64,000 bases of DNA from an uncultured Porphyromonadaceae bacterium. GTDB lineage: Bacteria > Bacteroidota > Bacteroidia > Bacteroidales > UBA12481. The translations under genes and the position numbers were made by a program. The notes under the pieces were generated by a model. That model ran no database searches and was not told where the DNA came from. It saw only the letters and a program-made list of their open reading frames with translations. The first letter of the stretch is position 1. Every line of letters starts with the position of its first letter. Positions 840-42,790 of the stretch are shown in pieces. Where the stretch lies: positions 10,394-74,393 of the forward strand of contig CAZEKJ010000005.1 of NCBI GenBank assembly GCA_964512915.1. Reading direction: 5' to 3'.

Positions 840-903
840 AAGGGTTTAAATATCAAGGTGAACGCGATCCCCGCTTTCGGGCAGGGCATGTGCTTCAAAA
901 CTT

Positions 904-930
904 GGGATCCTGACTTTCGTCAGGATGACA
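904..930 (-). repeat. GTCATCC-N4-GAAR-N4-GGATC hairpin element (copy 1; stem ATCCTGAC/GTCAGGAT, loop GAAA on minus strand)
   Basis: The reverse complement reads TGTCATCCTGACGAAAGTCAGGATCCC. Perfect 8-bp stem. A degenerate second copy lies at about 866-893. Confidence 0.7.
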
Positions 931-938
931 GTTCTGGC

Positions 939-992
939 CAACCGGCAACCGGTAACCGGTAACCGGTAACTAGCAACCAGCAACCAGCAACT
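939..992. repeat. heptamer tandem array (CAACCGG/TAACCGG/CAACCAG, ~7.7 units), preceded by junction TTCTGGCC (932-939)
   Basis: Counted by hand with period 7. The last unit, CAACTA, supplies the TAG stop of the symporter gene. Confidence 0.9.
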
Positions 993-2919
993 ATTTTCTC
1001 TGAATGTACCCCGAATCCTTATGGTCCCTCACCATCGTGCGGAGCGCGTGGATCATCTCTTTCAGGTTTTTCAGGCCGCCGATTGTGAACCAGATGGTTA
1101 CGATAATGGAGGTAATCAGGTAAATCCAGGTATAGATTTTCCAGAATGACATCCAGGTTTCGTTTTTCACTTCGGTGGTGAGATTGTATATCGTTCCGAT
1201 GATGAACACAATGGTCCATGCTGCCGTCCATGTATAGGTTGCGATCAGGATCCCTTTATCGGATTTTGTAAATTCCTTGGTTGCTCCCATCACTTTCCAT
1301 CCTTTCACGGCTTCAGCCTCCTCAACCACATTGGTTTCACCCACAATGGCGTACTTCCCGCGGTGCAGCATTTTGTCCATGTTGTATGGCTCTTTCGAGG
1401 TGATCAGGGATACAATAAAATAGATCAATGCGCCTGATATCATTGCGATAAACCAGAACCACTGTCCGTTGATCGGGAAGTCTTTAACCACGGAGTTAAG
1501 CACGATCCCGGTAGTGGCGATTGTGGCTCCGGCGATCATGGCCGACCAGGCACCGGCAGTAGTTCCCCGCTTCCAATAAAGCCCGCCGATGATGGCCGCA
1601 CCGGACCCGCCCACATAAATGGCGCCGGAGATGGCAAGGAACAGGAATACTTTTTCGGTTTGCTGGAACAGGATGCTGAGGATGAAAATGGTGATGCCCA
1701 CCCCAAGAATGGAGAGTTTCAGGTATTTCAGATGCTGTGCCTGCTCGAACGGTTTCTTCCTGAAAGGCATGATGCAGTCCTGAATGAAAATACTTCCCCA
1801 GGAGTGCATATAGGTGTTGTGAACCGTGATGGAGGCTGCCAGCATGATGGCGGCAAAGGCTCCCTTGAAACCGATGGGGAGGAGATAGTTCAGAACCATC
1901 GGGGTCCTGAGCTGACTTTGCATGGCTTCGGTGCCGGCGCCGGCCAGGGTGCCGTTAATGCTGGCAGCGATATCCTTGAAATCAACATGATTATAAATAG
2001 TATAGGCTACTATCGGGATAAAGACCAGAAACAGTCCCCATTGCGGGATCAGGCGCCAGTTTGTAAGCAAATCAGCCATCTTTGCCTCATGTGCATTTTT
2101 TGCTGCCACGTTGAATGAACTGTTGCCCTGCCAGGAAAGCTTGGTATACACAAGACCAAACATCCCGATAAAGAAAAACCAGATATTAAAATCCTGTACC
2201 TTGCTGGATTGGAATGGGTTGATGAGGGAGGCATCCTTTGGTGCAGCCTCCATGGCTTGTGAAATATGGGCCCAATCAACTTTAATTATCAGCAGAATAA
2301 CTATTGCTACGAAAACGATGTTAACGAAAACCCCCTGGATAAAGTCAGTGAACATTACCGCAACATGGCCGCCGGTGAGGGTAAAGAATAACGGGATGGC
2401 CACAATGAGCGCTGTGATCAGGATAAAGGTGGCCGAATAGGGCCCGATTTGCCCGACTTCCGGAATCCCGCAGAAATAGATGAAGAATCGGGCGGTTACT
2501 GAGGGGAAGATCACCATATTGACGATCCCGGAGAGGAAGGCGAGAAAACCGGAGAATATGCGGAAGCCGCGGCTATAGCGTACCTCAAAGAACTGGGCCA
2601 TCGTCATCACGCGGGTCTGCCGGTAGCGGTAAACCACCCATCCGGTTACGCTTATCCCAACCAGGAGAATTGTTGTAAGCATCTCCCACCATCGGGCATT
2701 GAAGCCGGCAGAGAAATTCTGTTCCATCACCCCCACAATGGTGATCGCACCCAGTGCGGCCGTACCGTGAAACATCGAGATTATGTAACGTCCGCCCGTC
2801 CGGCCGGTTGCCAAAAAATCACTCACGCTGTGCATCAGCTTCTTGCTCAGGAAAACCAGTCCGAACATCAGGGCCAGCAGCGCTGCAACGATTGCCCAAT
2901 CGATCACAGTAAGGTTCAT
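991..2919 (-). CDS. sodium:solute symporter (SSF) family transporter
   Basis: 642-aa polytopic membrane ORF with many hydrophobic segments and an N-terminal region typical of SSF permeases. It is co-oriented with the glycoside phosphorylase genes. Confidence 0.8.
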   Translation of the reverse strand: MNLTVIDWAIVAALLALMFGLVFLSKKLMHSVSDFLATGRTGGRYIISMFHGTAALGAITIVGVMEQNFSAGFNARWWEMLTTILLVGISVTGWVVYRYRQTRVMTMAQFFEVRYSRGFRIFSGFLAFLSGIVNMVIFPSVTARFFIYFCGIPEVGQIGPYSATFILITALIVAIPLFFTLTGGHVAVMFTDFIQGVFVNIVFVAIVILLIIKVDWAHISQAMEAAPKDASLINPFQSSKVQDFNIWFFFIGMFGLVYTKLSWQGNSSFNVAAKNAHEAKMADLLTNWRLIPQWGLFLVFIPIVAYTIYNHVDFKDIAASINGTLAGAGTEAMQSQLRTPMVLNYLLPIGFKGAFAAIMLAASITVHNTYMHSWGSIFIQDCIMPFRKKPFEQAQHLKYLKLSILGVGITIFILSILFQQTEKVFLFLAISGAIYVGGSGAAIIGGLYWKRGTTAGAWSAMIAGATIATTGIVLNSVVKDFPINGQWFWFIAMISGALIYFIVSLITSKEPYNMDKMLHRGKYAIVGETNVVEEAEAVKGWKVMGATKEFTKSDKGILIATYTWTAAWTIVFIIGTIYNLTTEVKNETWMSFWKIYTWIYLITSIIVTIWFTIGGLKNLKEMIHALRTMVRDHKDSGYIQRK

Positions 2920-2935
2920 AGTTGTTAGATATTTT

Positions 2936-3140
2936 TAAATCTCAAATCTCAAAAAACAAATCTCAAATAAGCTCCAAAAAACAAATCACAAATCACAAAA
3001 AACAAATCTCAAATCACAAAAACCAAAAACCAAATAAGCTCCAATCCTCAAGCTCCAAAAATTCAAACAGTGCGAGTTTGGGGTTTTGAGTTTTGGTTTT
3101 TGGAGCTTATTTGGTTTTTGTTTTTTGTGGTTTGAGGTTT
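2936..3140. repeat. composite C/A-rich arm + unique core + T/G-rich arm (long imperfect hairpin)
   Basis: AAATCTC/AAATCAC/AAAACCA units. Perfect 21-nt stem, CAAAAACCAAATAAGCTCCAA (3024-3044) against TTGGAGCTTATTTGGTTTTTG (3100-3120). The loop holds the core TTCAAACAGTGCGAGTTTGGGG. Confidence 0.85.
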
Positions 3141-3146
3141 ATTATG

Positions 3147-4103
3147 TTATCCGCAATTCATCATTAATTCCGCGATCGTTGACACGGCCAGCCCCACGCA
3201 CGTATCCGCCGCCCCGTAGTAAACGTACACTTCACTTTCGGGTTTGGCAAATCCTTCGGCATCAAAATCATGTACGATGATCCCGCTGGGGAACACCACG
3301 TTCGGTACCTGTCCGGCCAATTCCCATATCTCTCTTGGCTCCAGTATGTTATAGAATCCACGGCTGATTACCTTCGATGGATCATTCAGATCAAGGAGCA
3401 TTACCCCTGCCTGATATATATTGGCGCTGCCGAAATGGGTGGCCACCCCGTGATATATATGAAGCCATCCTTCCCGTGTTTTCACCGGCGGCGGACCGCT
3501 GCCGATAAACTCATCCCAGTAGTGGAACCTCCCGTCGATCACCGGTGCAACAGGTTGCCAGTCAATCAAGTTCTCTGATGAGGACAGCCAGATGGTGCTT
3601 CCAGATGATGGGCCACCGGTGTGGCGGGCCTTGTTGGGGCGGTCGAGCCGCATGTATCTCCCATTGATTTTCTCCGGAAACAGCACCCCGTTCCGTATAT
3701 CTTCATTTGAGGTGATCCCCAGGAACTTAAACTCCTTAAAATCATCAGTCTGGCCCAATCCCAGCTGGCACCCGGCATCCATGTCCATCGCAAACATGAT
3801 ATAATACGTGCCTTCGAGAAAGGTGATCCGGGCATCATAAATATGGTAGACCTTCTCCTTGATTTTTTCAATCCCCTTAAAATCAACGATATGGTCTTCC
3901 GCTTTGAAGTGGATGCCATCGGTCGACTCAGCCATCACCATGAATGTTTCACGGGATCGGCTCTGGGTTCGCAGCATCATCAGGTACTTATCGCCAAACT
4001 TAATGGCACCGGGGTTAAAAACCGAGCTGCAGTCGATCAGGTGAGGAGCGATAGCGGGGATATCGCTGCGGGTAAGGATGGGGTTAATCTTGTATCGTTT
4101 CAT
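3147..4103 (-). CDS. GH130 beta-mannoside phosphorylase (short, BT1033/RaMP2-like size class)
   Basis: 318 aa. Contains SVFNPGAIKFGDKYLMMLR, IYDARITF, RNGVLFPEKINGRYMRLDRPN and GWLHIYHGV, which match the GH130 five-bladed propeller phosphorylase pattern. Confidence 0.85.
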   Translation of the reverse strand: MKRYKINPILTRSDIPAIAPHLIDCSSVFNPGAIKFGDKYLMMLRTQSRSRETFMVMAESTDGIHFKAEDHIVDFKGIEKIKEKVYHIYDARITFLEGTYYIMFAMDMDAGCQLGLGQTDDFKEFKFLGITSNEDIRNGVLFPEKINGRYMRLDRPNKARHTGGPSSGSTIWLSSSENLIDWQPVAPVIDGRFHYWDEFIGSGPPPVKTREGWLHIYHGVATHFGSANIYQAGVMLLDLNDPSKVISRGFYNILEPREIWELAGQVPNVVFPSGIIVHDFDAEGFAKPESEVYVYYGAADTCVGLAVSTIAELMMNCG

Positions 4104-4115
4104 TGTTGATGTTTA

Positions 4116-4303
4116 TATCTCAAATCTCAAATATCAAATTTCAAAAAACAAATAAATCTCAAAAACCAAAACTCAAAACCCCAAACTCGCACTGTTTGAA
4201 ATTTTGTGGTTTGAGAATTGGAGCTTATTTGAGATTTGTTTTTTGTGGTTTGAGGTTTGTCTTTTGGAGCTTATTTGCTTTTTGGATATTGTTGTTTGTG
4301 GTT
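4116..4303. repeat. composite C/A-rich arm + core (inverted) + T/G-rich arm, same family as 2936-3140
   Basis: Contains the exact reverse complement (4163-4200) of 3062-3099, plus two TTGGAGCTTATTTG-initiated 41-nt modules (4218-4258 and 4264-4304). Confidence 0.85.
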
Positions 4304-4310
4304 TCATAGG

Positions 4311-4661
4311 TTATTGTGATTTCAACAGTATTGCTGAAAGTATCTTTTTAAGTTCTTCGGATTCCTTCATAAGAGCCAGACCTTCGGCCTGATATTTATC
4401 TTCATTTGTTTCTGTGATAAGTCTAAGCCAATATTGGCTCTCTTTTGCTTCTTTCCGACAAATTTTGATCCTCATTACAAAGTCTTTCTTGCTCAGGGCT
4501 TCATTCGCCTCGATATAATTTGCTCCAACGGATCCTGATGATCGAACCACTTGTTTGCCATATTCTACATTTGAAATGTCCTTAACTAATCCTTTTATGA
4601 AAAGAGCAACCCTCTTCGAAAACTGAAAAGTCCTCTCCTCTAAATCATTACGCTGCCCCAT
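4311..4661 (-). CDS. four-helix-bundle protein (23S rRNA intervening-sequence protein / Avd-like family)
   Basis: 116 aa. QVVRSSGSVGANYIEANEALSKKDFVMRIKICRKEAKESQYWLRLI matches the family signature (R-S-x-S-I-x-A-N-I-A-E-G ... E-x-x-Y-W-L). Two hand-counted 60-nt samples gave 35-38% G+C, against 47% for a sample of the adjacent GH94 gene. Confidence 0.8.
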   Translation of the reverse strand: MGQRNDLEERTFQFSKRVALFIKGLVKDISNVEYGKQVVRSSGSVGANYIEANEALSKKDFVMRIKICRKEAKESQYWLRLITETNEDKYQAEGLALMKESEELKKILSAILLKSQ

Positions 4662-4664: not shown

Positions 4665-4737
4665 TGTTTGTTTTTTTGATTTTTGATTATTGGAGCTTAT
4701 TTGATATTTGTTTTTTGTGATTTGTGATTTGTGATTT
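4665..4737. repeat. T/G-rich arm with 41-nt module (4690-4730), same family as 3100-3140
   Basis: TTGGAGCTTATTTGATATTTGTTTTTTGTGATTTGTGATTT. It ends 6 nt before the GH94 stop codon. Confidence 0.85.
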
Positions 4738-7145
4738 TACCCCAGCATTACCTCAACATGGCAAACCTCCTTGTCTGTCAATGGAATCCGATAGTCTACT
4801 CCCTTAACTATCTCAACTCCCTCAACTAGAACTTTCCTCACACCGCTCTCTTTCCCCTCCGGATTCAGCACGTGTATGATGTAACGTGTTCCCCGGTGCA
4901 CCCTTTCCATGGTAAATTCTTTCCAGTCTGAAGGAATGGTAGGATCGATGATCAGACCGTCATAGCCTGCGCGGGCGCCGAAGATGTAGTCGAACACCAC
5001 CCGGTACATCCAGGCGGCGGTTCCGGTTTGCCAGGAATGACTGGCCCGGCCGGCGGTTTCATGCTCGTCGCTGGTGATGTACTGGGAGTAAACATAAGGC
5101 TCGGCGAAGAAGGTATCGGAGTCAATGCGGTTCGGCAGCATCTTTTTGTAATAGCGGAAGGCTTCATTGCCATGACCCAGCATGCACTCTGCCTGAATCA
5201 GCCAGGTAGTGGGGTGGCCAAAGATGGCACCGTTCTCCTTTTTGCCCCATACACAGCGGGTTACCAATCCGATTTTGGGATCGATCTCCCGATAGGCCGG
5301 CGTGCATTTCTTCGGACCCTGTTCACTGTCGAGATGCGTGCGGATGCTTTCAAGAGCCTGCTCCTGGCGCTTGGGATCGAGTCCCGCCAGCACAGCCCAG
5401 GTTTGTGTGTTGATAAAAATCTTCCCGTATTTATTGTCCTTTGCCCCGATGCGCTTCTGGTTCTCGCCAAATGCCCGGATATACCAGTCACCGTCCCAGC
5501 AGTTGTCGTCCAGGGATTTAGCCATCCTGCTGGTCACTTCCTCAACAGCCGACTTCAGATCGGGCTTTTCAATCCTTGCCAGCAGTTCGATCAGCAGGTT
5601 CAGCATGGATACATAGAACATACCGCCCCAGACGCTCTCCCCGCCATCATCGCCGCCGATGTAATCCAGCGTGTCGTTCCAGTCGCCCCGGCCAAAAATA
5701 GGGAGTCCATGAGCCCCGAGATTTCCCTTTACGAAAGTGACAACGGCCATCAGGTGGTCGAGAATGGTTCCCGAAGTTCCATCATTATAGGGCTGAACCT
5801 CACTCAATATGCCAAAATCTCCGGTTTCTTTGATATAGTCCGTCACCGCCAGGATAAACCACAGCGGATCGTCGCAATGCTTGGTATACTCGCCCTGACC
5901 ATCGCCGTGGAAGTGATGGTACACTTTTCCATCGCCCCGCATCTGTCTGGCTAACATCAGGATACGTTGTTTGGCCTTGTCCGGATAGGAGATGGTTACC
6001 GCAATGGTATCCTGGGCTGTATCCCGGAACCCGAATCCCCTGCCGATCCCCCAGTAATAAAAACTGGTTACCCTCCCAATGTCAAACGCCACCTTGGCCT
6101 GGTAGGGCGACCAGCCGTTCATGAAAATATTCACATCCTGATCCGGAGTCTGAACTTTGGTGTGCGCAAAATACGCATCCCAGTATTGACGGACCTCGGC
6201 GAAGGCCTGCTCAACCTCCCTTTTATCCTGATACTTTAATACTTCATACTTTCCTTTTGCCTTCCTGCCCTCTTGCCCTCTGCCTTCGAAATCCGTTTTC
6301 GGAATCACGCCCAACTGAAAGATTACATCCCGGATTTCACCCGGAGCAAGTTCTATCTCGATTTGTATCGCCCCAACCGTGTTTCCAAAATCCGTGTCTT
6401 TACATCGTAAGTTGCCGGTTTCCAGGGCAATCGGGTTGGTTTCGTTCCGGTAAAACCCGATGAACTCCTCGCGGATCGTCTCATATTTAGTAATCGGGTG
6501 GTTAACCGTGAAGAAAGCCCACTGGTCCCACTCCTTGTTTTCCTGCTGCTGGGTTCCTTTGGTTTCGGTAACCCAGTAGGTCTTGGTGCCGAAAATCGAG
6601 TTTAATTCCTTATCCAGATAGACACGGTTAAAGTGCTGGTCATCACACTGATTAATAAGATCCACCAGCGCATGACCCAGCGCAAACTCTACATAACCGG
6701 TTATTTTTAGCCGTCGCTTTTTATCAGATTTGTTTGTCAGGACGGACTTCCAGATCTCGCGGTTATCGGTTCTCGGGACAAAAAACAGGAGTTCCGACTG
6801 AATTCCTTCAATTTCAGATTCCACGCGGGTATAACCGAATCCGTGCGCCACCCGGTATTTCTCCAGATGGTTGCCTACGGGCTGCCAGGTGAGGCTCCAC
6901 ATTTCGCCGCTGTCCTGGTCCTGAATATAGATGTATTTTCCGGGCCGGTCGGCTGGTACGTCGTTGATCCGGTACCGCGTGATCCGTCCGTGCAGGGGAA
7001 TCCGGTGGTAGCTGATGCCGCCGCCGTTGGCAGAGATGGTTGAGAAATATTCGTTATTATAAATGTAATTGATCCATGGGCGCGGAGTGGCCACATTATC
7101 AATGATATACTCCCGGCCATCTGCCGAGAAATGTCCGTAATTCAT
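4737..7145 (-). CDS. GH94 glycoside phosphorylase (cellobiose/chitobiose phosphorylase family)
   Basis: 802 aa. The N-terminus GREYIIDNVATPRPWINYI...GGGISYH...RITRYRINDVPADRPGKYIYIQD and the overall length are typical of GH94. Confidence 0.85.
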   Translation of the reverse strand: MNYGHFSADGREYIIDNVATPRPWINYIYNNEYFSTISANGGGISYHRIPLHGRITRYRINDVPADRPGKYIYIQDQDSGEMWSLTWQPVGNHLEKYRVAHGFGYTRVESEIEGIQSELLFFVPRTDNREIWKSVLTNKSDKKRRLKITGYVEFALGHALVDLINQCDDQHFNRVYLDKELNSIFGTKTYWVTETKGTQQQENKEWDQWAFFTVNHPITKYETIREEFIGFYRNETNPIALETGNLRCKDTDFGNTVGAIQIEIELAPGEIRDVIFQLGVIPKTDFEGRGQEGRKAKGKYEVLKYQDKREVEQAFAEVRQYWDAYFAHTKVQTPDQDVNIFMNGWSPYQAKVAFDIGRVTSFYYWGIGRGFGFRDTAQDTIAVTISYPDKAKQRILMLARQMRGDGKVYHHFHGDGQGEYTKHCDDPLWFILAVTDYIKETGDFGILSEVQPYNDGTSGTILDHLMAVVTFVKGNLGAHGLPIFGRGDWNDTLDYIGGDDGGESVWGGMFYVSMLNLLIELLARIEKPDLKSAVEEVTSRMAKSLDDNCWDGDWYIRAFGENQKRIGAKDNKYGKIFINTQTWAVLAGLDPKRQEQALESIRTHLDSEQGPKKCTPAYREIDPKIGLVTRCVWGKKENGAIFGHPTTWLIQAECMLGHGNEAFRYYKKMLPNRIDSDTFFAEPYVYSQYITSDEHETAGRASHSWQTGTAAWMYRVVFDYIFGARAGYDGLIIDPTIPSDWKEFTMERVHRGTRYIIHVLNPEGKESGVRKVLVEGVEIVKGVDYRIPLTDKEVCHVEVMLG

Positions 7146-7222: not shown

Positions 7223-7266
7223 GGGCACAAGGGCACAAGGGCACAAGGGCATAAGGGCATAGGGGG
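7223..7266. repeat. octamer tandem array GGGCACAA/GGGCATAA (~5.5 units)
   Basis: Counted by hand with period 8. Confidence 0.9.
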
Positions 7267-7273: not shown

Positions 7274-7300
7274 TGTCATCCCTGCGAAGGCGGGGATCCC
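7274..7300 (+). repeat. GTCATCC-N4-GAAR-N4-GGATC hairpin element (copy 2; stem ATCCCTGC/GCGGGGAT with one T-G wobble, loop GAAG)
   Basis: TGTCATCCCTGCGAAGGCGGGGATCCC. Confidence 0.7.
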
Positions 7301-7311
7301 CTCCCTCAATG

Positions 7312-7586
7312 CTAATTCTTACAAAAAAGCTGCTCTTTTGGTGGCTTCTCTACTTCCATCAGGAAGCCCATCATGTCCTCAAAGTCGCCGAGCATCCCGC
7401 ACAGAGACACCGGCTGAATCAGCGCTGTTCAGCAAATCCAGAACTTCTTCATTGACTAATACAGCCGTGCTGGCTTCATACAGATCTTTAAAGTATTTCC
7501 AGGAAAGAAGCCCTATGGTGGAGGTTTTGCAGAAAAGGGTTCGTCTTAAAGGGCAGTTTAAACTGAGTGGGGTTCTCGTTTTCCAT
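7312..7586 (-). pseudogene. possible decayed small gene (three consecutive reading segments separated by two +1 shifts)
   Basis: Hand translation gives three segments. Segment 1 is MENENPTQFKLPFKTNPFLQNLHHRASFLEIL*. Segment 2 is KDLYEASTAVLVNEEVLDLLNSADSAGVSVRDARRL*. Segment 3 is DFEDMMGFLMEVEKPPKEQLFCKN*. The terminator-like hairpin at 7167-7201 lies downstream. No family recognised. Confidence 0.2.
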
Positions 7587-7709
7587 CTTTTGTGTGGTTT
7601 TCAGGCAGACATATTCTCCCGTTAATACATTAATAGCAAAAGCCGGCAAAAAGTTACCGGGGTTGTGAAAAAAAATAGTAATACTTTAGAGACGTAATCA
7701 ACTCATTAC

Positions 7710-8621: not shown

Positions 8622-8660
8622 TGCCATTTTCGGTGCAATGCGAAAACGGAAGGAGTTATA

Positions 8661-9464
8661 GTGAAGACAATCAAAAAGATTCGGTACGTATGGAAATTCG
8701 CATACCGGCACCTGTTTTTCAAGGCCTGGTACCGGGTTATCAGCATCCTCGACAAAAAGGCGGAAGTGCTTTTTATGAATTTCGGCTACCATAATGATGA
8801 GCATGTCCTGAACCTGCTTCCGGAGGAGCAGATCAACCGCTATTCAATACACCTCTACCATCAGTTGGTTCACAAGCATCAGCTGTCGGGTAAGAAAATC
8901 CTGGAGGTCGGATGCGGACGGGGTGGCGGTCTGGCTTATGTGAAACGGCAATTCGCTCCGGCCCTGGCAATTGGCCTCGACCTGGACAGCAAGGCGGTTA
9001 AGTTTTGCCGGAATCATCATCCCTCAATAGGTTTGGAATTTGTGGCCGGAAATGCCCATCAGCTGCCTTTTGAGGACAATTCATTCGATTTTGTCATCAA
9101 TGTGGAATCGTCCCACCGGTATGAAAATATAGGTCAGTTTCTGAATGAGGTTCACCGGGTCCTTCGTCCCGGCGGTTTTTTCCTGATTACTGATTTCAGG
9201 CGTGAGTTTTTGGTTGATAAGTTCGACAAAGACCTGAATACATCGAACTTGACAGTGGCTGTGCGGGAGGATATCACCCCAAATGTTACGGCAGCCCTTG
9301 AACGGGACGACGCCCGCAGAAAAGAGCTGATCAACCGGATCGCACCCTTTTTCCTCAAAAAATTGGCACTGGAATTCGCAGGAATAAAGGATTCCGATGT
9401 TTACAGGAACTTTGAGTCGGGCCGGTGGGTCTACCTGAATTATTTTCTACAGAAAGATTCTTGA
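8661..9464 (+). CDS. class I SAM-dependent methyltransferase
   Basis: Motif I ILEVGCGRGGG and post-I/II motifs (FDFVINVES, LRPGGFF). GTG start preceded by AAGGAG (8650-8655). The alternative ATG is at 8775. Confidence 0.75.
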   Translation: MKTIKKIRYVWKFAYRHLFFKAWYRVISILDKKAEVLFMNFGYHNDEHVLNLLPEEQINRYSIHLYHQLVHKHQLSGKKILEVGCGRGGGLAYVKRQFAPALAIGLDLDSKAVKFCRNHHPSIGLEFVAGNAHQLPFEDNSFDFVINVESSHRYENIGQFLNEVHRVLRPGGFFLITDFRREFLVDKFDKDLNTSNLTVAVREDITPNVTAALERDDARRKELINRIAPFFLKKLALEFAGIKDSDVYRNFESGRWVYLNYFLQKDS

Positions 9465-9465
9465 T

Positions 9466-9579
9466 GCGTGAAGCGTGAAGCGTGAACCGTGAAGCGAAAT
9501 ATTGGAACGGTTCTCGCTTCTCGCTTCTCGCTTCTCGCTTCACGCTTCACGCTTCACGATTCATGCTTCACGCTTCACG
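9466..9579. repeat. imperfect palindrome of heptamer arrays: (GCGTGAA)x4 - spacer - (TTCTCGC)x4 (TTCACGC-like)x6
   Basis: Fills the whole gap between convergent genes. It begins 2 nt after the TGA of the methyltransferase and contains the stop of the URO-D-like gene (9568-9570). Confidence 0.9.
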
Positions 9580-10611
9580 TCCCGTCCTGAACATCGTCAG
9601 TATATTCTCAATCGGAATCCCATCATGCAGGGAATGATCGGAAGCCAGGATGTATCCCCCGCCGGGTGAGGCGATTGCAATGGCTTCGCGGACTTCGGCA
9701 GCAACTTCTTCAGGAGTTCCGAAAGGCAGGGTACGTGTAGAGTCGATATTCCCGATAATGCAGAATCGGTTGCCGTATTTTCCCTTGATGGTTCTCAAAT
9801 CCATATGGGCCGTACGCTGCAGGGGATGAACCGAGCAGATCTTGGTCTGGGCCAGGTCGTCCAGATAGGCATTGATGTTCCCGCAGGAGTGCAGCAGTAC
9901 CGGAACCCCCAGACTGTCAATATAATCGGCCATATCATGAATATAAGGCAGGAAAATCTCCCGGAAATGATCCACGGAAAAGAAACAGCTGTTGCTGTCG
10001 CCCAGGTCCTCGCTGATCCAGAGGCCTACACATCCTGATTCCACGGAACGGCGTGCAGCCTCCTTGAAATATTCGTTCGACATTTTCAGCACGTCGGTGA
10101 TCAGGCCGGGGTCCTCATACAGTGCATAACATATGCGTTCGAATCCCATCAGGAGCCAGGCAGTGCAAAGGGGACCACTGACCCCGCCCAGGATGGCCAT
10201 GTTTTCCCGGTTGTTTTCCACCGCGGCAAGGATCTCCGAATTCCGGCCGGGGAGGGTGGGGTCGGGGAGCCTGTATTTTCGAAGGTCTTCCCTCGATTTG
10301 ATCGGGTAATCGATCGGGGCATCAATCGGCCAGGAACTCTCATTTTTCTGATAGGTGGTGCCCCACTCATCCTGATAAACGTTGTCCTTCAGATATTTGG
10401 GCTGCAGTCCGGTAAATCCTCCAAATGGCACCCAAACCCCGTCGTGATCCAGCGCCAGCGCGCACTCCACAGCATCCTTGCCGTTATAACCCTCGGGTTT
10501 ATGCCCGATCAGGTGTTCATACAACGGCTGCTGAAACAGAAAATCAAACATCGGGACGCGATCCGGCACCTCCCGCCTCAACGCACTTAAAAAACGCTCT
10601 TTCCTATTCAT
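9568..10611 (-). CDS. uroporphyrinogen decarboxylase (URO-D) superfamily protein, MtaA/CmuA-like
   Basis: MNRKERFLSALRREVPDRVPMFD at the N-terminus, with length and C-terminus typical of URO-D-like methyltransferases. I prefer the ATG at 10611 over the track's GTG at 10617, which lies inside the repeat array. Confidence 0.7.
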   Translation of the reverse strand: MNRKERFLSALRREVPDRVPMFDFLFQQPLYEHLIGHKPEGYNGKDAVECALALDHDGVWVPFGGFTGLQPKYLKDNVYQDEWGTTYQKNESSWPIDAPIDYPIKSREDLRKYRLPDPTLPGRNSEILAAVENNRENMAILGGVSGPLCTAWLLMGFERICYALYEDPGLITDVLKMSNEYFKEAARRSVESGCVGLWISEDLGDSNSCFFSVDHFREIFLPYIHDMADYIDSLGVPVLLHSCGNINAYLDDLAQTKICSVHPLQRTAHMDLRTIKGKYGNRFCIIGNIDSTRTLPFGTPEEVAAEVREAIAIASPGGGYILASDHSLHDGIPIENILTMFRTGREA

Positions 10612-10612
10612 T

Positions 10613-10650
10613 GGCACATTGGCACATTAGCACATTAGCACATTAACACC
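10613..10650. repeat. octamer tandem array GGCACATT/AGCACATT (~4.7 units)
   Basis: Counted by hand. Same family and orientation as 12090-12145. Confidence 0.9.
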
Positions 10651-11988: not shown

Positions 11989-12043
11989 GTTGCTGGTTAT
12001 TGGTTGCTGGTTGCCAGTTGCCGGTTGCCGGTTTGGGCCAGAA
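11989..12043. repeat. heptamer array GTTGCTG/GTTGCCG (to 12035) + junction GGCCAGAA (12036-12043)
   Basis: The array starts at the nucleotide after the MFS start codon (CAT at 11986-11988). Confidence 0.9.
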
Positions 12044-12089
12044 GTTTATTTGTGTAATTTCTTAACTTGACTGATTCGTTTCCTTAATT

Positions 12090-12145
12090 AGCAAATTGGC
12101 ACATTAGCACATTAGCACATTGGCACATTAGCAAATTGGCACATT
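12090..12145. repeat. octamer tandem array AGCAAATT/GGCACATT/AGCACATT (7 units)
   Basis: Counted by hand with period 8. Confidence 0.9.
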
Positions 12146-12175
12146 AAATTATCTTTAGAGCAAATTAAACTAATT

Positions 12176-13560: not shown

Positions 13561-14487
13561 ATGGGAAGTTTACCGGAGAACGGCTGGCTTTGGGCCGGTT
13601 TTGTAGTTTTTGTAATCTGCATGCTCCTGCTGGATCTTGTGGTTTTCAATAAGAAAGCCCACGAGATCAAAATGAAGGAGGCCCTGCTCCTGAGTCTTTT
13701 CTGGATTTCACTGGCGGTAGCTTTTAATATCGGTGTCTGGAAGTTTCTCGGTACACAAAAGGCACTCGAATTCCTTACCGCTTACCTTATAGAGGAATCC
13801 CTTTCAATCGACAACCTCTTCGTGTTCATCATGATCTTCACCTATTTTCAGGTGAAACCGGAATATCAGCATAAAATTCTTTTCTGGGGGATTATTGGCG
13901 CCATGGTGATGAGGGCAATCTTTATTGTTACTGGCGTGGCTCTCATCCACCGGTTCGAATGGATCATCTATGTTTTCGGGGGCTTCCTTGTTATCACCGG
14001 GATCCGGATGATGTTCGACAAAGGAAAGCAAATCGATCCGGAAAAAAATCCCGTGATCCGGCTGGCAAGGAAACTGATACCGGTAACGCCTGACACCCAT
14101 GGCAGCCGGTTGTTTGTCAGGATTAACCATAAAACGTTTGCAACGCCTCTGTTTATTACCCTGATCATGATTGAGGTTACGGACCTGATTTTTGCAGTGG
14201 ATTCCATTCCGGCCGTGCTCGCTATCTCTTCCGATCCGTTTATTGTCTATACTTCGAACGTTTTTGCGATTCTCGGGCTCAGATCACTCTATTTTGCCCT
14301 GGCTTCCATTATCAAATACTTTCGTTTTCTTAAATACGGTCTTGCCGCCATACTGTTTTTCGTTGGGAGTAAGATGATTGTTTCATCTTTTTATAAGCTT
14401 CCCATTGGAGTTGCTCTGGGAACAGTTTTTGGGATACTTTTTCTTTCGGTGGTATTGTCGTTAATCATCCCTGAAAAAAAAGAGTAA
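13561..14487 (+). CDS. TerC/Alx family integral membrane protein
   Basis: LTAYLIEESLSIDNLFVFIMIF and a second DSIPAVLAI motif, characteristic of TerC. Confidence 0.85.
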   Translation: MGSLPENGWLWAGFVVFVICMLLLDLVVFNKKAHEIKMKEALLLSLFWISLAVAFNIGVWKFLGTQKALEFLTAYLIEESLSIDNLFVFIMIFTYFQVKPEYQHKILFWGIIGAMVMRAIFIVTGVALIHRFEWIIYVFGGFLVITGIRMMFDKGKQIDPEKNPVIRLARKLIPVTPDTHGSRLFVRINHKTFATPLFITLIMIEVTDLIFAVDSIPAVLAISSDPFIVYTSNVFAILGLRSLYFALASIIKYFRFLKYGLAAILFFVGSKMIVSSFYKLPIGVALGTVFGILFLSVVLSLIIPEKKE

Positions 14488-14513
14488 GTTTGCTAATTCT
14501 TATACCTAAACCG

Positions 14514-15161
14514 ATGGCAAAAGGATTCCTGCGCAAAATTCTTCTCCCCAAAGAAGATAAGTTTTTCCCAATGTTTGAAGAAATGGCTGATTTGATTTCA
14601 AAGGCCGCTGCAATCCTTAAACGTATTATTGATGCGGGTCTGCCGTATGATGAAAACGAGGCTTTTGCCGAGATTAAAATGCTCGAAAACAAAGCGGATG
14701 ATATCGTACACAATGTCCTTGATACTGTGGATTCTTCGTTCATTACTCCCTTTGACAGGGAGGACATCCAGCGACTGATCTCGAAAATGGATGACGTGAT
14801 CGATCTTATCAACTCAACGAGCCAGCAGATTAAACTTTACAAGCCCAAGAGCAGGATGCCCCAGGTGCGTGATTTGGCGCAGATTATTGTCAGTGGGTGT
14901 GAGCAAATCAGAATTGCCGCACCGGAATTGCGTAATCTCAAGAAATCAGAAAAGCTCCATGCTGCCTGTCTTGCCATGAATGACCTGGAAAACCAGGCCG
15001 ACGATGTGTTCCATGAGATGATCTCCACCCTTTTCCAGACAGAGACCAATCCGATAGAATTGGTTAAGCGGAAGGAAATCATTGAGACCATGGAAGAGAT
15101 CACAGATTGCATTGAGGATGTGTCAGACGTGCTGAAAACGATAATGATTAAATCTGCTTAA
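14514..15161 (+). CDS. DUF47 (PhoU-like, Pit accessory) protein
   Basis: MAKGFLRKILLPKEDKFFPMFEEMA... is the usual DUF47 N-terminus. I chose the ATG at 14514 over the track's non-ATG start at 14490. It sits directly upstream of a PiT transporter. Confidence 0.75.
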   Translation: MAKGFLRKILLPKEDKFFPMFEEMADLISKAAAILKRIIDAGLPYDENEAFAEIKMLENKADDIVHNVLDTVDSSFITPFDREDIQRLISKMDDVIDLINSTSQQIKLYKPKSRMPQVRDLAQIIVSGCEQIRIAAPELRNLKKSEKLHAACLAMNDLENQADDVFHEMISTLFQTETNPIELVKRKEIIETMEEITDCIEDVSDVLKTIMIKSA

Positions 15162-15171
15162 CCTTAAATTT

Positions 15172-16164
15172 ATGACGTGGTTTATCATCTTCATTATTGT
15201 TGTTGCACTGGCATTCGACTTCCTCAATGGAATGAATGATGCAGCCAACTCAATTGCAACCGTTGTTTCAACCAAGGTGTTAAGCCCAACCCAGGGTGTA
15301 ATCTGGGCAGCTTTCTGGAATTTTGCAGCTGTGTTTATTTTCGGTGTTCATGTTGCTAAAACCATCGGCAAGGGAATTGTTGATGCCGATATTGTGAACG
15401 AATATGTCATCTTTTCGGCCCTCATGGGAGCCATTGTCTGGGTTTATACGTGCACTCACCTGGGGCTGCCGATCAGTGTTTCACATTCCCTGATCGGAGG
15501 TTTAATAGGACCTGCTTTATTGATAGGAGGCCCGGATGCGCTGATCGCCACCGGAATTATTAAGATTGTTTTGTTTATTTTCCTTTCACCAATTGTGGGT
15601 TTCCTCCTTGGCTATCTGTTGATGGTAGCAACCATGTGGGTTTTCCGAAAAACATCGCCCCGAAAGGTTGATGGCGTATTCAGGGGCATGCAGCTTCTAT
15701 CTTCTGCCGTTTTCAGCCTGGGACATGGAAGCAATGATGCCCAAAAAACAATCGGAATCATAACGATTCTGCTTTTCAGTACCGGAAACCTGACCGGAGA
15801 ATTTCACGTTCCGGTGTGGGTGATTTTCGCCAGTTACACCACCATCGGTCTTGGCACCCTTGCAGGAGGCTGGAAAGTCATTAAGACTCTCGGGACCTCC
15901 CTCACCCACCTTAAGCCGGTTCAGGGTTTTTCTGCTGAAACTGCTGGTGCAATAACCGTAATCGGAAGCACCCTCGGAGGGATTCCGGTTAGTACTACTC
16001 ATACGATCACCGGGTCAATCATGGGTGTCGGATCGGTTAAACGACTCAGCGCGGTTCGCTGGGGGGTGGCAGGTAACATTATTCTGGCCTGGGTATTAAC
16101 AATTCCCGGAGCTATGCTCATCAGTACCGGCGTCTATTGGATTGTCAGCCTGATAATCAAATAA
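15172..16164 (+). CDS. inorganic phosphate transporter, PiT (PHO4) family
   Basis: FLNGMNDAANSIATVVSTKVL plus the duplicated GSNDAQKTIG motif. Confidence 0.9.
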   Translation: MTWFIIFIIVVALAFDFLNGMNDAANSIATVVSTKVLSPTQGVIWAAFWNFAAVFIFGVHVAKTIGKGIVDADIVNEYVIFSALMGAIVWVYTCTHLGLPISVSHSLIGGLIGPALLIGGPDALIATGIIKIVLFIFLSPIVGFLLGYLLMVATMWVFRKTSPRKVDGVFRGMQLLSSAVFSLGHGSNDAQKTIGIITILLFSTGNLTGEFHVPVWVIFASYTTIGLGTLAGGWKVIKTLGTSLTHLKPVQGFSAETAGAITVIGSTLGGIPVSTTHTITGSIMGVGSVKRLSAVRWGVAGNIILAWVLTIPGAMLISTGVYWIVSLIIK

Positions 16165-16190
16165 CAAATCCCTCCCTCATACCCTCTTAA

Positions 16191-16278
16191 AGTCTTACAG
16201 TCTTACAGTCTTACAGTCTTACAGTCTTAAAGTCTTACAGTCTTAAAGTCTTACAGTCTCTCCGTCTCTAAGTCTTCC
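16191..16278. repeat. octamer tandem array AGTCTTAC/AGTCTTAA (11 units)
   Basis: Counted by hand. The last units, CGTCTCTA and AGTCTTCC, contain the phoU stop codon and its last three codons. Confidence 0.95.
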
Positions 16279-16933: not shown

Positions 16934-16946
16934 ACCTTAATGTTTT

Positions 16947-17705: not shown

Positions 17706-17706
17706 A

Positions 17707-19754: not shown

Positions 19755-19772
19755 AAATGGGTAAAAGCCTTG

Positions 19773-26456: not shown

Positions 26457-26458
26457 AG

Positions 26459-26842
26459 CTAACGTGTTGTTGTGATGATCCATTTGGCGGCCGCATATCC
26501 GGCCCAAACCAGAAAAAGGCCGGCAATATTCGTTACCATAATGTTAACCAGGGCCGGCCAGACTTGGTTCTCGCGAATAAGGTTCAGAGTTTCAAGAGCA
26601 TAGGTTGAAAAGGTGGTGAACCCTCCTAACAACCCGATAAACACGAAGGATCGGTAGTTCGGAGCGATTTCCCTCTCCTCCGCTACGCCCCAAAGAAACC
26701 CGATCACCAGGGATCCGAGGAGGTTAACCACGAGGGTACCCATGGGGAAAGTGCCTGAATAGATGCGGTGAGTGAATCCGGCCAGGGCATACCGCCCGAG
26801 CGTCCCAATAGCACCGCCGGTAAGCAGCAGGATTATCTTCAT
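26459..26842 (-). CDS. crcB: fluoride channel CrcB/FluC
   Basis: 127 aa with four TM segments, GGAIGTLGRY and GGFTTFSTY motifs. ATGA start/stop overlap with the upstream GH38 gene. Confidence 0.9.
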   Translation of the reverse strand: MKIILLLTGGAIGTLGRYALAGFTHRIYSGTFPMGTLVVNLLGSLVIGFLWGVAEEREIAPNYRSFVFIGLLGGFTTFSTYALETLNLIRENQVWPALVNIMVTNIAGLFLVWAGYAAAKWIITTTR

Positions 26843-32983: not shown

Positions 32984-33048
32984 GTTGCTGGTTGCTGGTT
33001 GCTTGTTACCAGTTACCGGTTACCGGTTGCCGGTTAAGGAGCCAGAAG
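32984..33048. repeat. heptamer array GTTGCTG/GTTACCG (~7.5 units, to 33036) + junction GCCAGAAG (33041-33048)
   Basis: Starts 5 nt after the MFS start codon. Confidence 0.9.
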
Positions 33049-33071: not shown

Positions 33072-33135
33072 AGTCTCAAAGTCTTATAGTCTCAAAGTCT
33101 TATAGTCTCAAAGTCTTATAGTCTCAAAGTCTTCT
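33072..33135. repeat. 16-nt tandem array AGTCTCAAAGTCTTAT (4 units)
   Basis: Counted by hand. Confidence 0.95.
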
Positions 33136-33167
33136 GACTCTCGGTCTCTCGGTCTCTCGGTCTCCAA
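33136..33167. repeat. octamer array GACTCTCG/GTCTCTCG (4 units)
   Basis: Counted by hand. It runs up to the stop of the amidohydrolase gene. Confidence 0.85.
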
Positions 33168-34819: not shown

Positions 34820-34844
34820 TTTTTGGAACGGTTGTAGTTGTTAA

Positions 34845-34852
34845 CAAATCTA
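34845..34852 (-). promoter_or_regulatory. candidate Bacteroidota -7 box (TAGATTTG on minus strand)
   Basis: Perfect match to TAnnTTTG, 26 nt upstream of the ATG at 34819. Confidence 0.4.
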
Positions 34853-34924
34853 GGAATTTATGATGACACAACATTTTTTACCTGAATATGCGTTAATTTT
34901 ATACTTAAATCCCATAGTACATCT

Positions 34925-37402: not shown

Positions 37403-37461
37403 GATGGCATCATAATCTTCCCGCCTTTCCGTTATTCATTCATTACCGGATAGAATTCCAT

Positions 37462-39968: not shown

Positions 39969-40026
39969 TTGCCGGTTGGAAGACAGTTCCCGGTTGCCGG
40001 TTACCAGTTACCGGTTAGGCCAGAAC
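39968..40026. repeat. heptamer array GTTGCCG/GTTACCG + junction GGCCAGAAC (40018-40026)
   Basis: Starts within the TAG stop of the EEP gene (TAGTTGCCGG). Confidence 0.9.
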
Positions 40027-40028: not shown

Positions 40029-40063
40029 TCTCCCGACTCCCGTCTCCCGTCTCCCGTCTCCCA
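40029..40063. repeat. heptamer array TCTCCCG/ACTCCCG (5 units)
   Basis: Counted by hand. Confidence 0.85.
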
Positions 40064-40118
40064 GTCTCTTGGTCTTAAAGTCTAACAGTCTTAAAGTCTA
40101 ACAGTCTCTAAGTCTTCC
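40064..40118. repeat. AGTCTTAA/AGTCTAAC octamer/16-mer array
   Basis: Its last units contain the stop and the last three codons of the flavin reductase gene. Confidence 0.85.
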
Positions 40119-42127: not shown

Positions 42128-42145
42128 TTTGTTCACTAAAACTGA

Positions 42146-42153
42146 CAAAATTA
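42146..42153 (-). promoter_or_regulatory. candidate -7 box (TAATTTTG on minus strand)
   Basis: Perfect TAnnTTTG, 19 nt upstream of the ATG at 42127. Confidence 0.4.
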
Positions 42154-42296
42154 CCATTTTTTCCGTCACCGGAGGAAAGGCATAGATATTGATATATCTA
42201 GTTAAATAAATAAATAAATTTACACCCGGATTTTCGGGAGATTTAAACTTTTTTATCCGAAAATTGTCTAACTTAGTGAAACCAGAAAGGAATTGC

Positions 42297-42662
42297 ATGG
42301 CACTTGAGCATTTAACACAGGAAACTTTCAAGTCGAAGGTTTTTAATTTTGAAGCAAACAGCGAATGGAAGTTCGAAGGAAAACTTCCTGCTGTTATCGA
42401 TTTCTATGCAGATTGGTGCGGGCCGTGCAAAATGGTAGCCCCTGTTCTGGAAGAACTTGCAACAGAGTATAAAGGAAAAATTGATATCTATAAAGTTGAC
42501 ACTGAAGCAGAACGAGAACTTGCTGGCATGTTCCAGATACAAAGTATCCCGTCGATCCTGTTTATTCCCGTAGAGGGACAACCGGCGATGGCCAAAGGAG
42601 CAATGCCGAAGGATTCTTTCGTTAAAGCTTTTTCTGATGTTTTAAAAGTCGATTTGGATTAG
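42297..42662 (+). CDS. thioredoxin
   Basis: WCGPCK active site. I prefer the ATG at 42297 ([11 protein letters not shown]) over the TTG at 42264. Confidence 0.9.
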
Positions 42663-42694
42663 ATTTGTGATTTTGGTTTGTTTGGTTTGGGTTT
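42663..42694. repeat. T/G-rich units (ATTTGTG/ATTTTGG/TTTGTTTGG), same flavour as 3100-3140
   Basis: Begins at the nucleotide after the thioredoxin stop. Confidence 0.7.
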
Positions 42695-42695
42695 A

Positions 42696-42730
42696 GCCGG
42701 CCGGGGATTTCCCTGGTCGGCTTTTTTTTT
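42696..42730 (+). terminator. rho-independent terminator of thioredoxin
   Basis: GCCGGCCGGGG-ATTT-CCCTGGTCGGC stem (11 bp with two G-T wobbles), followed by T9 (42722-42730). Confidence 0.7.
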
Positions 42731-42757
42731 GTACAGACGCATGTATGCGTCCCGACA

Positions 42758-42790
42758 AATCGTAAATCGTCAATCGTAAATCGTCAATTT
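42758..42790. repeat. AATCGTA/AATCGTC heptamer array (TCGTAAA family)
   Basis: Counted by hand, ~4.7 units. Confidence 0.85.

Follow-up and report, generated by a model that had tools for sequence, protein, structure and literature searches.

In the window analysed here, a stretch of 64,000 nucleotides from an uncultured Porphyromonadaceae bacterium (contig CAZEKJ010000005.1, forward strand, positions 10,394 to 74,393), the spacers between genes carry head-to-tail arrays of very short repeat units. We consider it probable that these arrays are slippage-driven, self-perpetuating, hypervariable simple-sequence repeats that have spread with REP-like modules and are filtered by selection at the borders of open reading frames (ORFs). 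They are a dense, multi-family form of a known, unexplained kind of bacterial repeat, here in a new lineage and linked to hairpins of a family characterised only recently. Heptamer repeats at gene borders have been recorded for decades in cyanobacteria, Xanthomonas, giant sulfur bacteria and a few Bacteroidetes, and have no accepted origin or role; in the present lineage they are unusually dense and diverse, with units almost exclusively of 7 or 8 nt.

Running Tandem Repeats Finder (TRF) on the window and merging the hits with periods of 5-24 nt yielded 26 short-period arrays, 16 of period 7 and 8 of period 8, belonging to more than eight unit families. In 20 first-order Markov simulations of the window, the number of arrays per run was 0-3, and in 50 simulations of its non-coding fraction it was 0-1. 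Non-coding DNA is only ~6% of the window and holds 1119 of the 1212 array bases (92%); arrays take up a third of the spacer DNA between 1 and 43 kb (33% of non-coding bases), as against 4% between 43 and 64 kb. Long simple sequence repeats (LSSRs) with units of 5-11 nt are recognised by just such features, namely head-to-tail units far above chance, a mostly intergenic position and 7 nt as the commonest period. Across the clade described below, the smallest period was 7 nt in 38 arrays, 8 nt in 26 and some other value in the remaining 18 (64 of 82 are 7 or 8), and neither 7 nor 8 is a multiple of three.

A preliminary description of the window, made from the sequence alone, had presented the arrays as non-random, confined to spacers and drawn from few unit families. 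Every array that it listed was recovered by TRF and by direct reading of the sequence, at the same coordinates or a few bases away, and the simulations and the non-coding share of array bases support this general picture. The same description held that every operon boundary in the first 43 kb carries a mosaic of arrays, which is true of 14 of the 18 spacers of at least 30 nt but not of the other four (8622-8660, 20601-20649, 34820-34924 and 37403-37461). It also held that none occurs in the housekeeping half, from 43 to 64 kb; this is correct within the window, but the spacers of that half are short and contain only 666 non-coding bases, and 7/8-nt arrays flank dnaK in other Bacteroidales contigs. 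Its grouping of GCGTGAA (9466-9579) with GTCACGY (26097-26125) as a single family (f) cannot be kept, as these are two different units. CRISPR and coding repeats were ruled out by period length and intergenic position. In Rfam, searched at the gathering thresholds and at E<=1, a TPP riboswitch was the only real match and the arrays were unmatched; hits of miRNA-precursor families on the palindromes were discounted as generic long-hairpin matches. A tRNA search of the window found none.

The arrays are a trait of the lineage and not an assembly artefact, because independent assemblies show arrays at the same sites. The genes of the window fit a Bacteroidota scavenger of polysaccharide and phosphate (a T9SS sorting tail, a SusC-type receptor, GH94, GH130, GH38, GH123 and a Pst system). 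The nearest public locus, from the metagenome-assembled genome (MAG) 'Bacteroidetes bacterium GWF2_49_14' (L001), encodes an MFS transporter with 95% amino-acid identity to that of the window; the corresponding identity is 94% for a second locus, L002, and 77-81% for about ten freshwater or groundwater Bacteroidales MAGs. Both L001 and L002 are collinear with the window, and genes in BLAST blocks share 82-92% DNA identity with L001. When TRF was applied to 80 loci, the 12 close relatives (L001-L011 and L062) showed 0.5-5.9 arrays per 10 kb, most of them 1.9-5.9, and most distant taxa carrying the same gene showed 0-1. Metagenomic Bacteroidales with dnaK 75-80% identical and a GC content of 34-44% have 7/8-nt arrays of their own (L206 11923-11983; L211 9739-9775 and seven more; L247 9781-9819; L262 1696-1763), with units that include AAGATTC x8 directly past the dnaK stop codon, AAATTTGA and ATTTCACC. 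Arrays directly adjoin dnaK in several of these contigs, for example L206, L211 and L247, and the array habit is therefore wider than the window's clade. The heptamer CTGCCTA is arrayed both in a Bacteroidales MAG (L006 14104-14168) and in a Calditrichota MAG (L018 1880-1918).

Among the orthologous spacers of the window, L001 and L002, arrays differ in copy number, unit and presence. The AGTCTTAC array at the AGTCTTAM site (16185-16259) has 9.4 copies in the window and ~4-5 in L002, and TCGTAAA has ~5 copies versus 2 between orthologous spacers. At a single site the window carries GGGCACAA x4.6 (at 7223), and L001 carries (GGGGCATA)x6.6 and a hairpin. On either side of the MFS gene, L001 has (ATCATCWC)n in place of GCACATTR; L002 has three GCACATTR copies at the 10609-10650 site. 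The central spacer at 12 kb has given way to a hairpin doublet in L001. The 103-nt inverted array at 9465-9567 is absent from both relatives, whose spacers there measure 16 nt (L001) and 32 nt (L002). These spacers, together with the MFS flanks in 11 genomes, exhibit the polymorphism of length and sequence at a conserved position that characterises LSSRs. Thus, of the roles that the preliminary description had suggested, 'hypermutable spacers' agrees well with the differences among the three genomes, and the length polymorphism that it had set as a check on sister genomes was found.

The MFS gene illustrates how units are exchanged. The units ahead of it include AACCGGC/AACCAGC/AACCGAC, TGTCTAAT, TTGTCTT, AGTCTTAT and CTTCACCNT, with a GTCT-type octamer among them. 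A tract also lies directly past the MFS stop codon in five genomes (window, L001, L002, L009 and L062); in three of them, L001, L009 and L062, the array contains the stop codon. Cases in which an array provides the stop codon were noted in these three and in the window. Several unit families are common to more than one species, namely AATGTGCY, the AAGACTGT type, AACCGRC and AAGCGTG.

Three insertions or deletions separate the window from L001. A phoU-pstBACS-porin block (window 16268-22050) is present in L002 and absent from L001, which is otherwise collinear there (5580-5770); the breakpoints fall at the AGTCTTAC array and, at the other end, at a composite of a hairpin between two GTTGCYG-type arrays. 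The fluoride-resistance pair crcB and DUF190 (26121-26842) is likewise absent from L001 (1604-1846), where an NTS/SRM hairpin (a type described below) and a short GCACATT array are found. Conversely, L001 has an AbiEii toxin (PF08843) and DUF6922 pair (14326-15211) at a site where the window (7298-7671) has ~370 nt in which neither a convincing ORF nor any similarity to L001 could be detected; in both genomes this site lies beside a G-rich octamer array and a hairpin. All three differences fall at spacers that bear arrays or hairpins, a placement that says little because nearly all spacers carry arrays.

Arrays abut the ends of ORFs and are oriented so that the G-richer strand points outwards from the gene. 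Among stop-proximal arrays at the clade loci, G exceeds C on the sense strand in 21 cases and the reverse holds in 4 (p=0.0009). For start-proximal arrays the sense strand has more C than G by 11 to 4 in the clade and by 5 to 0 in the dnaK set, 16 of 20 together, and it is free of ATG, GTG and TTG in 15 of 24 arrays, as against 4 of 24 for the antisense strand. For stop triplets on the sense strand of 3' arrays the comparison gave 25 versus 19, which is not significant, so the idea that 3' arrays are selected for supplying stop codons is unsupported. At least four G3 tracts with loops of 4-5 nt, and hence the capacity to form a G-quadruplex, occur in only 2 of the 26 arrays (7223-7266, plus strand; 40029-40068, minus strand). 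In both of these, the G-tracts are on the strand that runs away from the adjacent ORF. A pair of palindromes, called type b below, have a polarity opposite to the rule.

The features of the window are listed here by position. Families are lettered as in the preliminary description: (a), CCGGTTR/AACCGGY heptamers, written GTTGCYG and the like in the list; (b), C/A-only or T/G-only units; (c), GCACATTR; (d), TCGTAAA; (e), AGTCTTAM octamers and related 16-mers; (g), the unit at 7223; (h), TCTCCCG. 'Junction' denotes the short sequence next to (a) arrays, and NTS/SRM the hairpin type taken up below, where SRM stands for Ssn-related motif.

903-930, minus strand: NTS/SRM-like hairpin GTCATCCTGACGAAAGTCAGGATCC, beyond the junction of the next feature; a second, degenerate copy lies at ~866-895.
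939-991, minus strand: (GTTGCYG)x7.6 after the symporter stop codon, with junction GGCCAGAAC at 931-939; the whole feature spans 903-991.
2936-3143: type-b palindrome, made of a C/A-only arm of AAATCTC/AAATCAC, the loop CAAACAGTGCGAGTTTG and a T/G-only arm; motif AATAAGCTCCAA / TTGGAGCTTATT.
4117-4303: second type-b palindrome, its loop opposite to the first; adjoins a gene of the 23S-rRNA intervening sequence protein (IVP) family at 4311-4661.
4665-4738, plus strand: lone type-b T/G-only arm on the far side of the IVP-family gene.
7223-7266, plus strand: (GGGCACAA)x4.6, G-quadruplex-capable, followed by the NTS/SRM-like hairpin TTGTCATCCCTGCGAAGGCGGGGATCC at 7274-7301.
9462-9579: inverted heptamers, (GCGTGAA)x5 facing (TTCNCGC)x10, between convergent genes and overlapping both stop codons.
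10609-10650, plus strand: (GCACATTR)x5 between the MFS stop codon and the next gene.
11989-12035, plus strand: (GTTGCYG)x7 abutting the MFS start codon, with junction GGCCAGAAG at 12036-12044.
12087-12146, plus strand: (TTRGCACA)x7.5, after junction GGCCAGAAG and a 40-nt spacer.
From 13470, plus strand: (GAGACTNA)x4.4 directly past the peptidase stop codon.
To 13554, plus strand: (TCGTAAA)x5.3 after the GAGACTNA array, ending 7 nt before the TerC start codon.
16185-16259, plus strand: (AGTCTTAM)x9.4 between convergent genes; unstructured.
22075-22143, left half of the composite palindrome 22075-22230: (GTTGCCG)x4.6 at 22075-22106, junction GGCCAGAAC, and an SRM hairpin at 22116-22143 (plus strand).
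To 22230, right half of the same palindrome: a 14-nt loop, an SRM hairpin at 22162-22189 (minus strand), and (AACCGGC)x4.4 at 22199-22230.
26097-26126, plus strand: (GTCACGY)x4 overlapping a gene junction.
From 32984, plus strand: (GTTGCTG/GTTACCG)x8 abutting the start codon of a second MFS gene, with junction variant GAGCCAGAAG at 33039-33048.
33072-33133, plus strand: (AGTCTCAAAGTCTTAT)x3.9, then (CTCTCGGT)x3.4 at 33138-33164; the feature runs to 33167.
From 39968, plus strand: (GTTRCCG)x~6 directly past a stop codon, with junction GGCCAGAAC at 40018-40026.
40029-40068: (TCTCCCG)x5.6, G-quadruplex-capable on the minus strand, then (GTCTTAAAGTCTAACA)x2.8 at 40072-40116.
42651-42788, plus strand, past the thioredoxin stop codon: a short T/G-only type-b stretch, and a terminator of hairpin and T-run at 42696-42730.
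42757-42788, plus strand: (AAATCGT)x4.6, ending just before the -7 box TACCTTTG and the TPP riboswitch.

Two structural classes can be told apart by folding. Four inverted loci form very stable hairpins on either strand: the composite at 22051-22235, in which (a) arrays surround a hairpin doublet (dG -112 kcal/mol, z -12); the type-b palindrome at 2920-3146 (dG -70 kcal/mol, z -9.5); the inverted array at 9455-9585, which lies between convergent genes and over both stop codons (dG -61 kcal/mol, z -8); and the type-b palindrome at 4104-4310 (dG -49 kcal/mol, z -3 to -5). Arrays in a single orientation (families c, d, e, g and h, and most of a) are no more structured than shuffled sequence (z ~0). 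The C/A-only and T/G-only tracts, which the preliminary description had set against each other as arrays of family (b), do exist, but they are the two arms of ~200-nt palindromes and not independent arrays. These type-b palindromes share the core AATAAGCTCCAA ... CAAACAGTGCGAGTTTG, and further copies were found in L001, L009 and L010. The loop CAAACAGTGCGAGTTTG is asymmetric and is inverted between orthologues (window 3060-3085 versus L001 19308-19324), and its orientation is also opposite between the two copies of the window; such flips are as expected if the arms of the palindrome recombine. The IVP-family gene (PF05635, a four-helix bundle) lies between the T/G-only arms 4200-4303 and 4665-4738, both of which carry TTGGAGCTTATTTG, and the arrangement is the same in L001. 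From this layout it looks as if the gene had been inserted into an arm of a type-b palindrome.

Arrays of family (a) form part of a larger module. The preliminary description had counted the same junction at five sites; GGCCAGAA is exact at four of them (932 on the minus strand, 12036, 22107 and 40018), in each case 0-3 nt past the (a) array, and the fifth, at 33041, is GAGCCAGAAG, with one mismatch. The module of array and junction GGCCAGAA(C/G), for which recurrence had been claimed, is indeed recurrent: the consensus ...(GGTTRCC)n-GGTT-(0-3 nt)-GGCCAGAAS describes 8 of 9 aligned copies from three genomes, with six sites in the window and others in L001 and L002. The same module of ~60 nt precedes two MFS paralogs that are only 37% identical to each other, and the module has therefore been copied between spacers, not inherited with the genes. 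Beyond the junction, the fixed order of modules that had been proposed does not hold. What follows is a hairpin, a 40-nt A/T-rich spacer, or arrays of h and e in either order (a-e-h at 33 kb, a-h-e at 40 kb, a-spacer-c at 12 kb). Two further leads were dropped. A search of viral contigs for CCGGTT-N0-2-GGCCAGAA gave 120 chance matches, none of them preceded by an (a) array, the pattern being too short. A gradient suggestive of CpG decay within (a) arrays, from CTGG/CCAG on the ORF side to CCGG on the junction side, was abandoned as a general rule, as it is true of four arrays only (window 939, 11989 and 32984, and the MFS-leader array of L002).

At two sites of the window, and also in L001, the junction leads into GTCAT followed by a 7-bp stem with a GNRA-like loop. 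A structure-aware search recovered 16 copies of this hairpin in the clade. GTCA-T is common to them, and at four positions of the stem the changes are compensatory. Some copies stand alone, and others form direct pairs (866-931) or inverted doublets (22116-22189; L001 9875-9956). All 16 have the hairpin core and oriented, conserved 5' flank by which SRMs are defined, and 10 match the SRM pattern HGTCWYN(0-2)YYVSBRHN(0-5)WNVSBRGN(0-2)RNCYNB exactly, as against a simulated expectation of <=0.4 per sequence. The exact matches are at 22116 (plus strand) and 22189 (minus strand) in the window, four in L001, one each in L005 and L006 and two in L009; the hairpins at window 7274 and 930 (minus strand) were matched in the relaxed hairpin search only. 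In single-stranded form, the hairpin of NTS/SRM type is TGTCATCCCGGCGAAGGCCGGGATC. Judged by this sequence evidence, the hairpin past the junction is a real family and appears to fit the published NTS/SRM motif.

Contrary to the preliminary description, which did not recognise a catalogued family, the class is known in the literature (heptamer LSSRs, TAACTGA repeats and the heptamers of Xanthomonas and Nostoc), if not in Rfam. An excess of heptamers among prokaryotic long simple sequence repeats was noted in the LSSR survey of Mrazek (2007), as summarised in PMC4679880 and PMC4692102, where Mrazek is also quoted for the idea that the preferred periods reflect polymerase slippage. A close parallel is with the GGGAATC repeats of Xanthomonas and the GGGGAYT repeats of Nostoc (Rehm et al., 2015; PMC4692102), which are ~90% intergenic, lie 0-50 bp from an ORF end or over the stop codon, have their G-rich strand non-coding upstream and coding downstream of genes, occur in part as inverted pairs, and vary in length and sequence among close relatives while keeping their position. 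The arrays of the window resemble them in their 7-nt intergenic units, ORF-end geometry, inverted pairs, turnover at kept positions and, in some cases, capacity to form G-quadruplexes; of this geometry, the 5' arrays show it in both the clade and the dnaK set, the 3' arrays in the clade set only. They differ in having many unrelated unit families in place of one dominant G-rich unit (most units contain one or two G), in 8-nt units nearly as common as 7-nt ones, in the concatenation of several arrays per spacer, in their ties to a hairpin element, and in their host, an uncultured Bacteroidales lineage.

TAACTGA direct repeats have been described in Beggiatoaceae, cyanobacteria and five Bacteroidetes, including Paludibacter, Flexibacter, Gramella and Aequorivita (MacGregor, 2015; PMC4679880). 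Many of them lie a few nucleotides upstream of start codons in the 'forward' orientation; some spacers hold several different heptamer arrays, some relatives have no array at the same site, and a translational role was proposed for them in Beggiatoaceae and Flexibacter (PMC4679880). Our arrays share the heptamer direct repeats near start codons, the multi-array spacers and the absence in some relatives, but their unit differs and they are equally common past stop codons. No tandem TAACTGA was found in the window with two mismatches allowed, nor was one met in 280 loci. The only such case is a spacer of L003 (3695-3755, near-identical in L005), in which (YAACTGA)x4, two TAACTGA-type beside CAACTGA units, adjoins (AACCGAC)x4.

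Cyanobacteria also have the STRR heptamers, tandem families in spacers that are conserved as families across genera, with small hairpin elements in or beside the arrays; the heptamers, and the small dispersed repeats (SDR) nested in them, were reportedly described by Mazel in 1990 and by Elhai in 2008. The combination of tandem heptamers and hairpins is alike in the window, whereas unit sequences, host phylum and hairpin family differ: no canonical unit of the window or clade matches the STRR1-3 consensus heptamers of heterocystous cyanobacteria, and the host belongs to the Bacteroidota.

The hairpins have their own parallels. NTS or SRM hairpins and dRS3/NIME elements are known from Neisseria; there SsnA, a small GIY-YIG nuclease, cuts the hairpins as single-stranded DNA, and the hairpins modulate how incoming DNA recombines (Chenal et al., 2025; PMC11893778, whose main text makes no mention of Bacteroidota). 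The window form, TGTCATYCCNGCGAAAGCNGGRAYC, is nearly identical in design to NTS (CGTCATTCCCGCGMAVGCGGGAATC; CGTCATTCCCGCGMAVGCGGGAATCYRG); it too has a conserved GTCAT head that gives it an orientation, is extragenic and often occurs as inverted pairs around genes. Unlike in Neisseria, no small GIY-YIG-like ORF (ssn, cd10448, ~95 aa) was found by a signature search of the window and 160 loci, and NIMEs consist of RS units of 50-150 bp in place of 7/8-nt arrays. The BIMEs and REPINs of E. coli are doublets of REP sequences (Bertels and Rainey, 2011; PMC3116915). The likeness to BIMEs that had been drawn earlier is apt for the composite at 22051-22229, two inverted hairpin units between inverted arrays, and the extragenic inverted doublets (22116-22189; L001 9875-9956), each a single long hairpin, share with BIMEs and REPINs a mosaic build and non-autonomous spread. 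The head is GTCAT here and GTAG there, however, and the stem family differs; the flanks are micro-tandem arrays, not defined linker motifs, and most of the mosaic consists of arrays without any palindromic unit. No Y1 transposase (RAYT, IS200/IS605-like) was present among the window genes scanned.

How might such arrays arise and persist? Slipped-strand mispairing and unequal exchange would make them grow, shrink and become homogenised. A limited set of unit families would be copied between spacers, at least in part with REP-like modules that consist of an (a) array, the GGCCAGAAC junction and an NTS/SRM-type hairpin, single or as an inverted doublet, the whole perhaps being mobilised together. 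Purifying selection would then keep arrays in spacers and set their orientation, with the G-rich strand away from the gene, by removing those that bring start triplets or G-driven structure ahead of the ATG or that intrude into proteins; the strand leading into a gene would as a result have few G and no start triplets. The arrays may have no dedicated function; inverted pairs, as long hairpins, could act as terminators or RNA-stabilising stems and single arrays as structure-free leaders, but any such use of them is probably incidental. That units of 7 and 8 nt are preferred, and 6 or 9 never occur, is compatible either with polymerase slippage or with the short distance over which non-triplet units can prolong an ORF.

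Several observations weigh against this explanation. A repeat tract stands against the ATG of the MFS gene in 11 of 11 clade genomes, with a unit that differs between genomes, and TRF scores 8 of 12 MFS leaders as arrays, compared with 11-17% of other gene starts; 'an array' as such looks retained there, which hints at a function. Unit families persist across genomes whose genes are 70-80% identical in DNA, which is unexpected for neutral, fast-decaying sequence. The polarity statistics are limited by roughly called ORFs, by low counts and by loci that are not phylogenetically independent; the bias of stop-proximal arrays was not replicated in the independent dnaK set (6 versus 6), and the orientation bias could equally reflect a positive role at the RNA level. 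Finally, the mobilisation step lacks support, because no transposase, RAYT, ssn or integrase gene was found in the 64 kb or the related loci.

The main alternative is that the arrays are functional RNA punctuation, in which G-poor, structure-free leaders serve the Shine-Dalgarno-independent initiation of Bacteroidota, and G/U-rich or inverted 3' arrays terminate, stabilise or insulate transcripts. The retention of the MFS-start array despite turnover of its unit is the strongest argument for it, and the orientation bias, the avoidance of start triplets on the sense strand ahead of ATG, the inverted composites (dG -61 to -112) between convergent or tandem genes, and the TAACTGA repeats in the same position, with their proposed translational role (PMC4679880), all point the same way. 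Close relatives, however, gain and lose arrays while the genes remain unchanged, the majority of gene starts and stops are array-free, and type-b palindromes have the opposite polarity. Moreover, stems and T-runs are both lacking in most 3' arrays, and at 42696-42730 a canonical hairpin and T-run terminator sits beside the arrays. We regard RNA punctuation as unlikely.

A bolder reading would see in the arrays a system that marks gene boundaries throughout the lineage: each tract would keep its position and polarity, and its unit would be free to turn over. G-poor, non-self-complementary 7/8-nt repeats would be structure-free landing pads for ribosomes in the absence of a Shine-Dalgarno sequence, inverse tracts or inverted pairs would close the preceding cistron, and an Ssn- or REP-type enzyme would renew and redistribute the tracts through the hairpins. 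Such a system seems decidedly unlikely to us; if it were real, it would supply a testable function for heptamer repeats, unexplained since their discovery in cyanobacteria.

A role in DNA rather than RNA could also be envisaged, with arrays and NTS/SRM hairpins marking boundaries for recombination or restriction, acted on by an Ssn nuclease or a REP transposase, or promoting exchange of gene cassettes through microhomology. The hairpins do match the SRMs of Ssn nucleases that modulate recombination of incoming DNA in Neisseria (PMC11893778), the three differences from L001 (the pst operon and porin, crcB and DUF190, and AbiEii/DUF6922) are all at array or hairpin spacers, and the MFS gene lies between direct arrays of one unit, which differs between genomes. 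Yet with almost all spacers array-bearing the placement of these differences does not discriminate, the enzymes are missing from the same 64 kb and related loci, and only ~5 hairpins accompany the 26 arrays. A boundary function of this kind is, in our judgement, very unlikely.

Contingency loci, whose copy number in a promoter or leader would tune genes for uptake and glycan degradation by phase variation, are a still different proposal. Copy number does differ between relatives, many flanking genes encode transporters, porins or glycoside hydrolases, and a -7 box follows closely on the end of the (d) array. But arrays flank all classes of genes, including dnaK in other Bacteroidales, and follow stop codons as often as they precede starts; units of 7-8 nt outside ORFs switch no reading frames, and phase variation was also rejected in the Xanthomonas study (PMC4692102). 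We consider it highly improbable. An artefact of assembly or binning, conceivable for a source that is probably metagenome-assembled and for repeats, which are error-prone in assembly, is effectively refuted by arrays mostly shorter than 100 nt and within read length, by the same arrays at orthologous sites in independent assemblies from different studies, and by flanks collinear with L001 and L002.

Whether or not slippage and selection at ORF borders account for the arrays, the related genomes show them expanding, swapping units and vanishing while the site persists, and show them physically joined to NTS/SRM hairpins. The lineage is thus a good system in which to ask whether such repeats are selfish products of slippage or sequence-independent expression signals, and whether REP-like elements act as their seeds. 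On the practical side, array spacers confuse the calling of gene starts and stops and the assembly of MAGs, and are natural strain markers.

The preliminary description overstated the tie between arrays and transcription-unit boundaries. Bacteroidetes-type -7 boxes (TAnnTTTG) were found in the spacers only three times and are therefore too few to map transcription units; long co-directional runs of genes may be transcribed through the arrays. One box, TACCTTTG at 42794-42801, is perfect and stands directly after the (TCGTAAA) array and before the TPP riboswitch. The riboswitch itself (RF00059, 61 bits), in the stretch 42794-42902, precedes a gene for a TonB-dependent receptor (42928-45294). 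A scan for sigma-70 promoters was set aside, since its sites were no commoner than in shuffled sequence and the promoter type is wrong for Bacteroidota.

Two further observations concern the housekeeping half of the window. A perfect 28-nt x 1.9 tandem repeat, GAGGACCCGCGGTCCTCCCGGATTAACC, with a GC-rich palindrome in each copy, lies at 57402-57455 between a panB-like gene (56572-57396) and a pseudouridine synthase gene (57462-58148), and is another kind of repeat than the 7/8-nt arrays. In addition, an unlisted ORF of 72 aa on the minus strand (48327-48545) encodes the small subunit of exonuclease VII (xseB, PF02609). It is downstream of xseA (49009-50262) on the same strand, with a pyridoxamine-oxidase-like gene (48535-49002) between them, and because it occupies 48327-48545, an apparent spacer of 306 nt is really ~98 nt long.

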